From: an uncultured Spirochaetota bacterium
GTDB taxonomy: Bacteria > Spirochaetota > Brevinematia > Brevinematales > JAOACQ01
Assembly (NCBI GenBank): GCA_963768055.1
Contig: CAVYGN010000002.1
Span: 768,001-832,000, forward strand
Length of the DNA: 64,000 nucleotides
Reading direction: 5' to 3'
A program made the position numbers. How positions within the stretch are numbered: position 1 is the first letter of the stretch; each line of letters opens with the position of its first letter. Of the stretch, positions 9,001-15,000 are shown one piece after another.

Positions 9001-12000
9001 AATTTCAGAAATAAAAAGGAGTAATAAATGAATAACCGGACAAAATATATTATTCTGCTATCCATACTTGGCGCCCTTATCCTTGTATGGATACTTTTAG
9101 TATCGAATCCGGAAAAAGCGTACCGGCTCCCCAATGTAAAGGCTCCGGATAATGTTACAGGAATAGGAATAGTAAAGGGGACTGGCGAAAAAATTATGCT
9201 TATCTTTACAAACAGCAAGTGGATGCTTGAACCCGGCGATTATTTTGCACAAAACAGCGATGTAAACGAAATGATCGCCCAGCTTAAAACCTTCGAGATT
9301 TCCGATCTTGTTACAGGAGGATCATTATTGAATTACAGCCTGGATGATTCGAACAGGATTGATATCATGGCCTATTACAGCAATAAAGAGGTTCTTCATT
9401 TTTATATGGGAAAAACAAGTGCAACATACAGGCATACCTATGTGCAGCTTTCAGGCGACACTAATGTTTATCAGGCTAAAGGTACCTTTTATTACGCCTT
9501 CAACAAGGATTTCGACGGTTTAAAATCAAGGGATATTTCCCTGCTTAATAAGGATGACCTGATGCAGGTTAGAATAAAAGAAAATGGAAAGGAATACTTA
9601 TTAAAAAGAATTAAATCTTCTGATAAATCCCAATGGAAGGCTTCCTGGAAAAATACACCGGCTGATGAAGTTAAAGTCGATGCTTTTCTGCAGAAAACAA
9701 CTCCATTGTCAGCAGCGGCGCTTGCGCCGGGGAAAATGGATGATAAAGCTTCTTACTTGAGGCTTATTGAGCTGAAAACCGATAAGGAAATAGAAACCAT
9801 TTATATTTTCAGACAGGAAAACACCAAGGAAAAATTTTATATCGTAGGTGTGAAGGGTAATCCCGTGTTGTTTAAAATAACCGAATCCCAGGGTAAAGAT
9901 CTGCTGAAAAAAATATACGAATTTTAATATGGGTCCGCAGGGATTAGAAACGCCCAGGCTTTAATATTCCATTTTCCGCCTGTCGATATAATAATGACTT
10001 TGATACTTTCAGGAGAGTCATTGGTGGAAAACGAGGAAAGAATATCCCTCATACGCAGGGGGAACGAGCTTTTTAACCAGGGAGATTTTAAAAATTCCCT
10101 GAAGATTTTTTTAATGACGGATTATAAAGATGGCATAATCCGCGTAGCGGATTACCTGTATTTTGATAGAAAGGATAAGGTAAGCGCAGTAAAACTTTAT
10201 AAGAGGGCAGGCCATCAAAAAGTGATTGATGAGTTTTCAGAAAGGGTGGCGGTTTTGATCAAATTACTTTTGTCGGAAGATAAAATTATTAAGCAGATCA
10301 CTGAAGGTGAAATTGAGGGAACCGGTTCAGTCATTAAGGAATGGAAACCGGCTTCGATAAAGGGCGACGATCTTTCGAAGATGGACAACAAGTGAATGGC
10401 ATATTGTATGTAGTATCGACTCCTATCGGTAATTTAGGCGATATAACGCTCCGGGCCCTGGAAATATTAAAGAATGTCGATGGGATTGCATGTGAAAACC
10501 GGGATAGGCACATAAAACTGCTAAACCGTTACAGCATAAAAAACCGTCTCCTGGAATATTCTCCCGCTAATGAAAAAAACAGTTCAAAAGGCATTGTAAA
10601 ACTTCTTCTTGAAGGAAAAAATATCGCCCTTGTCAGCGATGCCGGGGTTCCCGGTTTGTCCGATCCCGGTTATGTACTATTGGAAGAAGCACGGAAGAAT
10701 TTTATTAAAATCGTACCCGTACCGGGAGTATCTGCACTTACGACCCTGCTCTCTGTTTCCGGCATGCCTTTCAAAAAATTAATATTTCTCGGATTTTTGC
10801 CCAAGTCATTATCGCGTATTGAAAAGGAACTGGGCCAATACCGTAGTTTCAATGGAGGGATAGTTTTTTTTGCGAACCAGCGGCATGTAAAAAAAATCCT
10901 GGATCTCATTAATAAAATTTTCGACAATGTCGAAATTATTATTGGAAGGGAGATGACAAAGATGAACGAAGAGTTTGTTCGGGATAAAATTACAGAAATA
11001 ATAAAGGCCGGTATTGAGGAAAGAGGGGAATTTACAATTTTAATTCATAACAGGTTAAAAAATCCAGGAAGGGAACATACTGAAGGGCGCCTCTAATAAC
11101 CTTCGGATAGGAAGCGCCCATAGGGCATGCATTCAAGTTGAATTGTGCATGTTAACGGAAAGAGATTTTCTTGAGTAATTAGAACTGCCCTGAATAAAAT
11201 AAATTTTTAGGAAGAGAAGTTTTCCTAAAGATTGTTTTGAAATTGACCGAAAATTAAACCGACAGAAGAGGAGGTCCTTTATGGAAATTCGAGGAATTGA
11301 CAATGTCAGGGGAATTGATAACAATTCAAAGATAAACAAGTTAGTTAAAAAAGATAATGAATCAACTCAGGTCCCTGATTCGGCTGAAATTTCCAAGGAA
11401 GCAAAGCAGCTTGCCGAAGAAGCGAAAATACGCGAAACATTGGCTAAAGTGCCTGATGTAAGAGAGGATAAAATCCAGCAGGCGAAGGAAAAGCTCGAAA
11501 ACGGGGCATACAATAAAGAAGAGGTTATAAACACTGTCGCTGAAAGGCTGATGAAAGTTCTTGGCCTGTAAATCACAGAATTTAAGAAAGTTTTAATAAA
11601 TCTTATGGGGCTGCCTCAAAAGGCAGCCCCTTTTTCGTGATCTGATAGATATAAGTCATGCATTATGATATAATTAAATATGAAAAATAATTTACCTGTA
11701 GTTGCGATAATCGGAAGACCTAATGTGGGGAAATCCTCCCTGTTCAATCTTCTCCTTGGAGAAAGAAAATCGATAGTTGATGAAATTGAAGGTGTGACCC
11801 GGGATGTCAATAAGGGAATAGTAAAAACAAACCGTATTTCTTTTACTATCCTGGATACCGCCGGATATCTTGAGAAAGGAGATGAATTCAATAAATTGGT
11901 CCAGGAAAAAATAAGAGAAGCTATCGCCGGTACTGACCTGGTTTTATTTATTGTTGATGGAAGAGAGCCCCATCCTTACGATGAAGATATCGCCCGTATT

Positions 12001-15000
12001 CTTAAGAGGGAACAAAAGCCCGTTATTATAATCGCCAATAAGCTTGATAACAGGGATATGGAAAGTCTTGCCGACCAATTCTATCATCTTGGTTTCGATA
12101 CCATTATACCTTTTTCGGTTTCCCATAAACGCGGTTACATACAGATAATTGAAATCATCGAGGATATGCTGTCGCATTTAGAATATGACCAGGAAGACAA
12201 ACCTGAAGAAGATGAAATTAAAATATCTATAGTAGGAAAGCCGAATGTCGGGAAATCTCTTTTGATTAACAAGCTCCTGGGTTTTGATAGAAGTATAGTA
12301 TCGGATATTCCCGGCACTACGAGGGACTCGGTTGACGATGTTTTTAATTATTCGGGACATACAATAAGGCTCATTGATACGGCAGGACTCCGGCGGAAAT
12401 CGAAAGTAAGCGGCAACATTGAATATTACAGTAATGTAAGGACTGTTCAGACTATTGAAAGAAGCGACGTGGTTATTATGCTTATGGATGCCGGGGAACA
12501 AATTTCACAGCAGGACAGGAAAATTGTTGAGATGGTCATCGAGAAGGGCAAGGCCCTTGTTATTGCATATAACAAGTGGGATCTAAAAAGGACAAGGTCG
12601 GACGATGATTACAGGCTCATGGAGGGGACCAGGAAACTTACATTTAAGGAGATCGGTATTTATCAATTTGTCCCGGTTGAATTTGTTTCAGCCCTGGACG
12701 GATACCGGATAGATAAGTTGATGGAAACCGTATTCAGGGTTGACAGGGATTATCATTACCGGGTACCGACGGGAGTTTTAAATGCCTGGCTTGAAAGAGA
12801 AATAAGGGAAAGCGATATAAAAAAACCGAGTTCCAACCTGAGGATCTATTATGCCACACAGGTTTATTCGGCGCCGCCCAAATTTATTTTTTTTATAAAT
12901 AAAAAGGAGCACTTAAGAAAGGATTTTACGAGGCAGATTGAGAAAAAATTAAGAGGAGCCTTTGAATTTACGGGTACTCCTATTAAAATAACTTTCAAAG
13001 AAAAAGCCCCTTAAGGGCTTGGGTTGGAGGTAAAATGAAAAAATATTTATTTTTAGCGGTAATGACGTGTTCGGTATTATTTTTCCTCCGGCACTCTTTT
13101 GGGCTTAATCAGATACCGGGTTCCCAGAATGTATATGTCGGTTATGGAGTTAACGAACTTTCTCTGGGTTATGCGGGTATTTCCGAAATGTCCAGTATCG
13201 ATGGGAACTCATTCAACCCCGCAAGCATGGGCGATCTTAGGAGAATGGCAAACAGCCTGTCGGCAGGCGGGTTTGAAAGCGATGATTTGTTATTCAGCGC
13301 AGGTTTTTCATATCCGACGGGGATCGGAGTCCTGTCGATCAACGGCGTTTATCTCGAAGATTCGGCTTCAAATTCACTTTCATCCCTGATCGGGCTTCAA
13401 TTAAGCCTGGCCAAACCCATCACAGAAAATTTATTCTGGGGCGTCGATGTAAAATACGGTTCGGGTTCTTTATCGAATTCCTCCGATTATCAGCTTGCCG
13501 GGGATATGGGACTTATACTCAGGGAAAATACCCCGGGGACGGGCTTCGGTTTTTTTGAACCCTCATTCGGCATTGTATTAAAAAACCTGGGAAAATCGAT
13601 ACAGCTTGGCGAATATGATCCGTTCCCGGCAATGGGCGTCGGAGCCGGCGCATCATTTGATCCTGTGAAATATGATGCATATAGGTTAAGATTGATAGCC
13701 GATGCCGTAGTTCCGGTTAATCCGTTTAATGTCATTCTTGACGCCGGACTTGAAAATACATTCTTTGATTTTTTGAAGATAAGGGCGGGGTATATATTTT
13801 CAACCCCTTCCCTTGGAATATCCTACATCGGGCCTTTCCAGCTGGGTATAGCCCTGATGGGAAAAATAGCCTATAATGCCACTAATTTCAATCCTGAAAA
13901 CCTGCAGGTAAAAACTGCAGGCGAGCGCCTGGACAATTCGACGGATATTGAATTGGCATATGCGCTTCAGCAGCAGAATTTCAACGGCAAGTACGAACTT
14001 GCTCATTTTATAAATGTCAGCGTTGCATGGGGTTACTTTAGCACTGTAAAGCCGTTTGTATCCCTCAAACCCGATATTATATACATCTCGCCTAATACCG
14101 AATCCACACAGGGAAAAGTGAGATTATCGCTCGATATCAAGGATAGCGTTATTATAGAAGGTTGGGAAGCCGATATCAGGGATAAAAACGGCAATACCGT
14201 GAAAACTTTCAAGAGCCTTGATAAATTGCAGATCAGAATGCTGACCCCCGGAAAATTTTTAAGCCAGATATTCTCATCAAAACAGCAGGTTGATATTCCC
14301 GGGGATGTAGTATGGGACGGCCATGATGAAATCGGGGCAAAAGTCCCGGATGGGGAATATAATTATATTCTGCGCGCATGGGATGAAAATAACAATATTG
14401 GAGAAACCGAACCCGGAAAGCTGATAATAGATACCGTACCCCCGAAGCTGGAGCCGTCATTACCGTATCTCGTGTTCTCAATCAATAAAGACAGTTCAAA
14501 GCAGTTGTTATTTATAGATATAAAAAGTTCCGATGTCGAAAACGGTGATAAGATACATGCTGCAATAATAGATTCAAAAACCAATGAGGTGCGAACATTC
14601 GATTTTGAGAATTCATGCCCGGCCCGGATAGTCTGGGATGGACATGATGATCATAATGGTATAGTTCCTGAAGGAGAATACAGCTTTTCTGCCAGGGCAT
14701 GGGACAGGGCCGGTAATATAACATTGAAGAAGATTACAGGCATACGTCTTGTGACAAATTATGAAACAATCATGCTGAATTCAGAAGATGATGCCTTCTC
14801 TCCGAATAACGATGGTTTCAAGGATACTGTAACATTTGTCCAGAAATCGTCCAGCACCAGGGGCCTGGAGGAATGGTCGCTCAAAATTTACGATAATAAT
14901 TCAAACGTCGTAAAGGAATATAAAGGCGGCCATGACCTGCCTGAAGAAATTGTCTGGGACGGAAGGGATAAAAACAATTCAATAGTCAAGGATGGGTACT

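Follow-up and report, generated by a model that had tools for sequence, protein, structure and literature searches.

Absence of a detectable Era GTPase from a non-reduced Brevinematales genome, and its probable repeated loss among Spirochaetota

Der and the rRNA operon of the window

The window, a stretch of 64,000 nucleotides at C2:768001-832000, carries the gene for the ribosome-biogenesis GTPase Der and a linked rRNA operon (Table 1). The genome to which it belongs (G000; 3,688,977 bp in 2 contigs, no N) is rated 94.75% complete.

Table 1 Features of the window and of the remainder of the genome that bear on Era. Positions are those of the window unless a contig is named.
Feature	Position	Strand	Basis
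der/engA (ribosome-biogenesis GTPase Der)	11680..13014	+	ORF with exactly these bounds, 444 aa
16S rRNA gene (RNA that Era would act on)	44942..46473	+	Rfam RF00177, 1509.3 bits, model 1-1533
GATCACCTCC at the 16S 3' end	46461..46470	+	Direct reading; Era KH recognition sequence, unchanged
Linked rRNA operon 16S-tRNA-tRNA-23S-5S	44942..50024	+	Rfam gathering-threshold matches
Second 16S copy	about C2:1036367-1037389		Located by primer motifs; two copies in the genome
Orphan GTPase L067	G000:C2:1766803-1767927		MMR_HSR1 with DUF697 tail; no NCBIfam match

The der ORF matches TIGR03594 at 472.5 bits (cut-off 306.7), with residues 6–440 aligned to profile positions 1–432 of 432, and its Pfam content is two tandem G domains (MMR_HSR1 ×2) and a KH-like C-terminal domain (PF14714, residues 361–440). 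On the Era model TIGR00436 the two G domains score 94.7 and 74.7 bits and match only model positions 3–168 and 1–174 of 270; the Era-type G domain is common to the Era/Der/MnmE group and does not discriminate within it. Against NF000908 (Era) the ORF reaches 195.5 bits, below the cut-off of 237, with a best stretch covering profile positions 5–169 of 291. Assignment of this ORF to Era was rejected, as the near full-length Era match is lacking and the full-length Der match is present. Judged by these profiles, the ORF is an ordinary full-length Der and not Era; every sequence-level feature of the Der/EngA family (TIGR03594) is found in it, and no difference from the family was seen. Der matters here solely because no paralogue lies closer to the missing Era.

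GAUCACCUCC is named as the Era recognition sequence in the title of a paper by Tu et al. (2011) that PMC10582724 cites. Both 16S copies end in GGATCACCTCCTTA, and an altered Era target was rejected on that ground. The 23S gene matches its Rfam model in full (1–2925). With the 16S, the two tRNA and the 23S and 5S genes linked within the window, the operon is conventional, and unlinked rRNA genes are therefore ruled out as the reason for Era being dispensable.

Searches for Era in the genome and across the phylum

The preliminary description of this DNA had reported that Era is missing from the 3.7-Mb genome, that the closest matches to the Era model are the two Der domains and a set of other GTPases, and that none of these has the Era KH domain. 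All of these claims were reproduced: TIGR00436, Pfam KH_2 and lineage-specific full-length and KH-only profiles were negative for Era. With TIGR00436, 52 of 52 candidates were scored, the best being Der domain 1 (94.7 bits), followed by Der domain 2 and then by ORFs of 456, 340, 377, 713 and 409 aa (MnmE, Obg, HflX, FeoB and HydF). None of the 7 matches at E ≤ 1e-10 extends past position 174 of the 270 in the model, and all cover the G domain only. The KH_2 search of the genome returned above its cut-off a single 213-aa ORF, whose length and 73.1-bit KH_2 match point to ribosomal protein S3, and no Era KH domain.

The lineage-specific HMMs derive from 26 Era proteins of spirochaetes. In an unfiltered run (--max) on the six-frame ORFs of 40 aa or more (38,444 in all), the full-length HMM recovered known GTPases only, with no domain extending into the KH part; the KH-only HMM, also unfiltered over the six-frame ORFs, gave the S3 ORF as its best match (E = 0.15). 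No other ORF of the genome is a better candidate for Era in these searches. Full-length family matches explain all the GTPase hits: Der, MnmE, Obg, HydF, FeoB, HflX, IF2, LepA, BipA, EF-G (two copies), EF-Tu, CysNC and FlhF. The one orphan GTPase, L067, was considered as a diverged Era and rejected, since it is devoid of a KH domain and, of 33 genomes in the order, 1 carries it.

Throughout the order Brevinematales, as had been claimed, Era is absent (0/35, all candidates scored, G-domain matches only), and the set includes single-contig genomes that are 99–100% complete; TIGR00436 was positive in all 10 bacterial controls. At the level of recognisable sequence, these searches support the earlier interpretation that Era is undetectable in this non-reduced genome and its order. 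The suspicion that the loss is older and wider than the order was also borne out. The class Brevinematia gave 0/43 with all candidates scored, and again 0/43 with a KH-only alignment; in the Spirochaetota sample, 284 of 401 genomes are without Era and 117 have it, from runs that scored 6 or at most 11 candidates per genome. Tallies by family were identical for the KH-only alignment and the full model, and the E-value distribution over the 401 genomes is bimodal, with no genomes forming an intermediate class.

One large Era-less family (f15, 0/75) has 4.4-Mb genomes, many of them 99–100% complete, and is LipL32-positive (6.9e-74 in member G042), from which we infer that it is Leptospiraceae; in some of these Leptospira-type genomes 29–88 kb lay outside the searched sequence. 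Four f15 genomes and one genome of a second family, f20, were searched again with every candidate scored, and G-domain matches alone resulted. The class that we take, also by inference, to be that of Treponema and Borrelia has Era in 242 of 251 genomes. Genome sizes range from 1.3 to 4.9 Mb in Brevinematia and from about 1.4 to 5 Mb in the Era-less Spirochaetota lineages.

Repeated loss and 30S maturation without Era

On an RpoB tree of 60 genomes, a single-gene tree from a quick search with one distant outgroup, the distribution of Era takes 7 changes of state, 5 of them forced by well-supported branches; three or four of the changes counted are single MAGs (G037, G038, G039, G060) with possible assembly gaps. 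Constraining the 28 Era-less rows into one group, a grouping chosen after the tree was seen, costs 351 lnL, and the AU test rejects such a group (p-AU 1.4e-56). Four multi-family groups are common to the Era and RpoB trees, a congruence that favours vertical descent with losses. As reconstructed from these sequences, the pattern on the RpoB tree needs at least 5–7 changes in Era state.

The 30S assembly partners said to be kept are indeed present: YbeY, RbfA, RimM and KsgA were all found, and KhpA was read by eye as a 78-aa KhpA-like ORF between rpsP and rimM. Searches of the genome for RsgA, YqeH and EngB found none, and YqeH is likewise absent from the class (0/43). With RsgA and YqeH also gone, no dedicated 30S GTPase remains in the genus of G000. 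RsgA occurs in most Era-less families (f15 23/23, f20 24/24) and is absent from this genus, and a complementary distribution of Era with RsgA or YqeH is thus unsupported; in independent-pairs tests Era was unassociated with RsgA or RSH. RelA/SpoT (TIGR00691) was found in 0/24 Brevinematia, G000 included, and the (p)ppGpp synthetase domain PF04607 in 0/5 genomes of its genus, while the Leptospira-type clade keeps RelA/SpoT in 22/23 with Era absent. Among the 60 tree genomes, with states transcribed by hand, 20 have neither Era nor RSH, 16 RSH only, 16 both and 8 Era only; across five independent pairs the two were unassociated (sign test, p about 1). No replacement for Era emerged from the sequence searches of the genome. 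Candidate substitutes were sought beside ybeY, where the neighbours are DUF4912 and MotA/ExbB, and beside rimM, which lies in an ordinary rpsP-khpA-rimM-trmD-rplS operon, and none was found.

We favour, with a probability of roughly 0.7, a normal Der together with a true, ancient loss of era before the Brevinematia radiated, as one of at least 5 independent losses in Spirochaetota that would include one in the Leptospira-type clade. In Era-less lineages 30S maturation would then proceed without Era, and RbfA, RimM, KsgA/RsmA, YbeY and KhpA, together with LepA, may carry maturation of the 3' domain and platform unaided. Counted against this explanation is the point that an absent sequence match is not an absent function; a fold-level or non-homologous substitute is invisible to the searches used.

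Selection for Era in Brevinematia may have been lifted in part by the loss of the stringent-response machinery. A 2026 preprint (10.64898/2026.04.21.719802) reports that Era is indispensable to E. coli only in cells that have RelA. That the absence of RelA/SpoT relaxed the need for Era is a tentative lead, specific to this lineage; RelA loss cannot serve as the general explanation, given the Leptospira-type clade, in which Era is missing despite retained RelA/SpoT. It is rather doubtful, though conceivable, that a shift in late 30S maturation at the level of the phylum (a hidden factor, or a rewired h45/anti-SD pathway) made Era redundant early and led to its being discarded at least 5 times, in lineages of normal genome size both free-living and host-associated. 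Were this so, Leptospira-type bacteria would be natural, culturable Era-null models and the substitute, so far hidden, a novel factor of ribosome assembly.

An unlikely alternative is that the work of Era is done by a protein that escapes recognition, either an Era diverged beyond the profiles or a non-homologous chaperone or GTPase gained early in the phylum. An early-acquired substitute would explain why era was dropped again and again; repeated losses within one phylum suggest a phylum-wide predisposition, and the conserved 16S target and the want of another dedicated 30S GTPase in the genus speak for it as well. However, the unfiltered lineage-specific full-length and KH-only profiles were negative, nothing intermediate separates the two modes of E-values over 401 genomes, the only orphan GTPase is strain-specific, and the neighbourhoods of ybeY and rimM hold no candidate. 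A takeover of the 30S role by Der, or by one of the other kept GTPases (Obg, HflX or LepA, for instance), appears more improbable still. In its favour, Der is the closest Era relative that the genome encodes, its C-terminal domain is KH-like, and LepA has a reported connection with stability of the 30S 3' domain (PMC12787274); but this Der fits the Der model from end to end at ordinary scores, with nothing unusual about it. As to an artefact, by which era would lie in unassembled or unsearched sequence or have been missed by the pipeline, G000 is incomplete at 94.75% in 2 contigs and some other genomes have unsearched stretches. This reading is nonetheless effectively refuted by the 0/43 of the class, with its single-contig genomes 99–100% complete, by the 0/75 of f15, many of them equally complete, and by searches that were positive in 10/10 bacterial controls and 242/251 sister-class genomes.

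Implications and comparison with known Era-less systems

Era is treated as among the most deeply conserved ribosome-assembly factors, and several spirochaete lineages of normal genome size appear to have lost it separately. That whole spirochaete classes with genomes of 2–5 Mb are without Era would make its indispensability context-dependent. These lineages supply natural Era-null organisms, some of them culturable and genetically tractable, as test cases for whether Era is needed for handling of the 16S 3' end, for a premature-initiation checkpoint or for interplay with (p)ppGpp and RelA. They also advise caution in the use of era as a universal marker or a broad-spectrum drug target.

According to the 2023 review (PMC10582724), 'Era addiction' is escaped only by extremely reduced bacteria, and the Era losers named are, as the preliminary description stated, only genome-reduced ones: Dependentiae, Chlamydia and most CPR. 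The string 'Spirochaet' is absent from the main text of that review and of PMC12641178, as is 'Leptospir' from the main text of the latter, the supplement of which may hold per-phylum tables; we found no prior statement in the literature that spirochaetes or Leptospira lack Era.

Like Dependentiae, Chlamydia and most CPR, as portrayed in PMC10582724 (section 5) and PMC12641178 (MBE 2025), Brevinematales (0/35) and Brevinematia (0/43) are lineages without a recognisable era gene, complete genomes included. Those groups combine extreme genome reduction with simplified ribosomes, whereas G000 has 3.69 Mb, full-length 16S and 23S genes and a normal operon; extreme reduction is found neither in this genome nor in its class (1.3–4.9 Mb). 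Spirochaetota differ further from the known Era losers in that the loss recurs at least 5 times within one phylum. Retention of RbfA in the Era-less genome recalls the complementary era/rbfA pattern reported for CPR classes (PMC12641178). Working 30S subunits made without Era are seen in the laboratory, in the viable but sick era mutants of model bacteria that the review lists (PMC10582724) and in the bypass of the need for Era by deletion of relA in E. coli, which the preprint reports (10.64898/2026.04.21.719802). The condition of that bypass, no RelA, matches Brevinematia, which are without RelA/SpoT; the Leptospira-type clade, in contrast, lacks Era and keeps RelA/SpoT (22/23). Finally, laboratory depletions of Era carry fitness costs, whereas in Spirochaetota the loss would have been fixed over long evolutionary time.

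Era and its nearest paralogue in G000

The der gene of G000, the Brevinematales genome under study, is an ordinary gene and the nearest paralogue of the missing Era. It lies in the window, which spans G000:C2:768001-832000. It matches the NCBIfam Der/EngA family TIGR03594 with 472.5 bits (cut-off 306.7; residues 6-440 on profile positions 1-432 of 432), and Pfam places in it two MMR_HSR1 G domains and, at residues 361-440, the Der-type KH-like domain PF14714. The preliminary description had reported Era as missing from G000 and its order, and its figures for the curated 270-position Era model TIGR00436 were reproduced in G000 with 52 of 52 candidates scored. 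The best match (94.7 bits) falls on domain 1 of Der (model positions 3-168) and the next on domain 2 (1-174); the following five are MnmE, Obg, HflX, FeoB and HydF, as had been stated, each identified by its full-length equivalog.

A control that does not depend on the curated model used two HMMs, one full-length and one KH-only, built from 26 Era proteins of various spirochaete families. Both were run with all filters off over every six-frame ORF of 40 aa or longer (38,444 in total) in G000 (3,688,977 bp, two contigs, zero N, GC 41.5%). Across all of these ORFs the full-length HMM matched the known GTPases and nothing else, and the top match of the KH-only HMM was ribosomal protein S3 (E=0.15). 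Pfam KH_2 rose above its cut-off in G000 solely in a 213-aa ORF, read as S3. Era is undetectable in G000 by TIGR00436, KH_2 and both spirochaete HMMs, and matches to the full-length HMM never extend into the KH half, in line with the earlier claim that its GTPases lack the Era KH domain. GTPase-like matches in G000 were assigned to Der, MnmE, Obg, HydF, FeoB, HflX, IF2, LepA, BipA, EF-G (two copies), EF-Tu, CysNC and FlhF, and the sole GTPase without an NCBIfam family is encoded at locus L067, outside the window.

Coordinates of features in the window, elsewhere in G000 and in other spirochaete genomes
Feature	Location	Strand	Description
der/engA ORF	window 11680-13014	+	444 aa
ORF immediately 3' of der	window 13035-17120	+	1361 aa; internally repetitive; C-terminus OmpA-like by eye
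rRNA operon	window 44942-50024		16S, two tRNAs, 23S, 5S, each full-length on its model
L067 GTPase	G000:C2:1766803-1767927	+	375 aa; MMR_HSR1 with DUF697 tail
L084 paralogues	L084 9766-14497 (G000:C2:1093765-1098496)	-	three in tandem, ~490-550 aa, near ybeY (a few genes away); ankyrin repeats at the N-terminus and a caspase-like Peptidase_C14 domain at the C-terminus of each
Era in long frame	G138:C17:230236-231039		
Era in long frame	G224:C1:549962-550408		
Era in long frame	G289:C47		
Era in long frame	G370:C29		
Era in long frame	G584:C96		
Era in long frame	G426:C20		
Era in long frame	G549:C1		

Era across the class and the phylum

All 35 of 35 genomes of the order gave G-domain matches only, with every candidate scored, in agreement with the preliminary description; they include single-contig assemblies rated 99-100% complete. 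That description had also hinted at an older and wider loss, which is borne out. With all candidates scored, the KH-only Era alignment A1 found the domain in 0 of 43 genomes of the class Brevinematia, and TIGR00436 (E<=1e-30, six candidates scored per genome) found Era in only 117 of 401 genomes of the phylum sample (104 of 336 high-quality genomes). The KH-only alignment (E<=1e-3) again returned 117 of 401 and agreed with that result family by family; its E-values are bimodal, either <=5.7e-19 or no match, save one second match at 5.8e-4. At the level of sequence, these searches confirm that Era is missing from G000 and from the whole class.

Five more Era-less genomes (families f10-f14), with all candidates scored, likewise gave only G-domain matches. 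The largest Era-less family, f15, has Era in 0 of 75 genomes. One f15 genome, G042, of 4.4 Mb and 99% completeness, encodes LipL32 (E=6.9e-74), a hallmark of pathogenic Leptospira, and we infer from this that f15 is Leptospiraceae. When all candidates were scored in four genomes of f15 and one of f20, with all but 29-88 kb searched in three of the five, only Der, MnmE-sized and smaller G-domain matches were seen. Era was found in none of the genomes of families f20 (0/38), f14 (0/17), f18 (0/11), f29 (0/8) and f7 (0/8). The class with genomes of Treponema and Borrelia size has the Era KH domain in 242 of 251 genomes (184 of 188 high-quality). Within its family f70, two single-contig genomes, G409 (2.3 Mb, 95% complete) and G438 (1.9 Mb, 92% complete), gave no Era KH match and a third has the domain, possibly reflecting another recent loss. 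Some Era matches lie in open frames of 434-806 aa (table), which may be fusions or just long upstream open frames.

The number of losses was assessed on a single-gene tree of the RpoB region (model positions ~1-892) from 60 genomes in 38 families, with E. coli rpoB as a distant outgroup (IQ-TREE quick search, LG+G4, 865 columns). Era state requires seven changes on this tree, five of them forced by branches with SH-aLRT >=95. The solid Era-less groups comprise a Leptospira-type clade (f8, f15, f18, f29, f36 and f45; 13 rows, support 100), Brevinematia (f1, f2, f5, f6 and f7; 10 rows, support 100), f20 (3 rows), f14 (2 rows, inside a large Era-bearing clade and sister to Era-bearing f27) and a group of f13, f41, f25 and f33; the Era-less singletons G037, G038, G039 and G060 may be assembly gaps. 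Holding the first four of these clades (28 rows) together on one side of a branch, against the 24 Era-bearing rows, lowered the log-likelihood by 351 units (p-AU 1.4e-56); this constraint group was chosen after the tree was seen. The tree of the 26 Era proteins shares four multi-family groups with RpoB (f21 and f30; f16 and f28; f19 and f35; f9 with f23, f32 and f39), and this agreement favours vertical descent with later losses rather than repeated gains of Era. Together, these gene trees support the Brevinematia loss as one of several that arose independently in a phylum whose genomes are of normal size.

30S maturation in Era-less lineages

G000 keeps YbeY (133.1 bits), RbfA (88.2), RimM (115) and KsgA (173.3), together with a KhpA-like 78-aa ORF that by eye has a GxxG motif and lies between rpsP and rimM; the preliminary description had listed all five as kept. 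Searches of G000 returned no RsgA (top 22 bits), YqeH (top 30.7 bits, on Der) or EngB/YsxC (top 51.9 bits, on Der). YqeH is found in 0 of 43 genomes of the class. Of the 201 spirochaetes sampled for RsgA, 152 have it, among them all those of f15 (23/23) and f20 (24/24). It is patchy in Brevinematia (11 of a set of 24 to which G000 belongs; f6 0/3, f7 0/5), with 0 of 2 in other members of G000's genus. The genus thus lacks all three dedicated 30S GTPases, Era, RsgA and YqeH. The ribosome-assembly GTPases remaining in G000 are Der, Obg, HflX, LepA and BipA (RbgA and YchF being outside the search). In Leptospira-type f15, RsgA usually gives two matches per genome (for example G042, G141 and G147), all in genomes without Era.

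The 3' end of the 16S rRNA reads GGATCACCTCCTTA in both G000 copies and includes GAUCACCUCC, the element that Tu et al. (2011; cited in PMC10582724) give in their title as recognised by Era. With this site intact and the rRNA genes linked in the operon of the window, neither a changed RNA target nor unlinked rRNA genes explains the loss, and both are ruled out. A hidden substitute doing Era's job is quite unlikely in our judgement. The L067 GTPase turned up in a single genome among 33 of the order, which marks it as a strain-specific accessory gene and rules it out in this role.

A mechanistic lead comes from a 2026 preprint (10.64898/2026.04.21.719802) reporting that growth and translation recover under Era depletion in an E. 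coli relA deletion, and concluding that the essentiality of Era is contingent on RelA. Long RelA/SpoT homologues (RSH; TIGR00691, E<=1e-40) are present in 112 of 201 sampled spirochaetes and in none of 24 Brevinematia, a set that includes G000, and the (p)ppGpp synthetase domain PF04607 was found in 0 of 5 genomes of its genus; at 3.7 Mb, G000 apparently lacks a stringent-response synthetase. This agrees with the RelA link for the lineage of G000. The link is not general, since RSH are kept in the Era-less families f15 (22/23, Leptospira-type), f14 (16/17), f18 (7/7) and f29 (5/5), and some Era-bearing groups (f17, f21, f30 and genus g30, 0/5) have none. Among the 60 tree genomes, with states transcribed by hand, 20 lack both, 16 have RSH only, 16 have both and 8 have Era only, and five independent pairs show no association. 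RelA loss may still be tied to Era loss as a tentative, somewhat doubtful lead specific to Brevinematia. We infer that 30S maturation in these lineages copes without Era.

A full-text search of one literature library (main text only for PMC12641178) found no published statement of Era absence in spirochaetes or Leptospira. The 2023 Era review (PMC10582724) names only Dependentiae, Chlamydia and most CPR, described as extremely genome-reduced, as groups without Era. Its main text contains no word starting with 'Spirochaet', and that of PMC12641178 neither 'Spirochaet' nor 'Leptospir'. Orthology databases surely imply this absence. Era loss is itself a known phenomenon; here it is recurrent and occurs without genome reduction.
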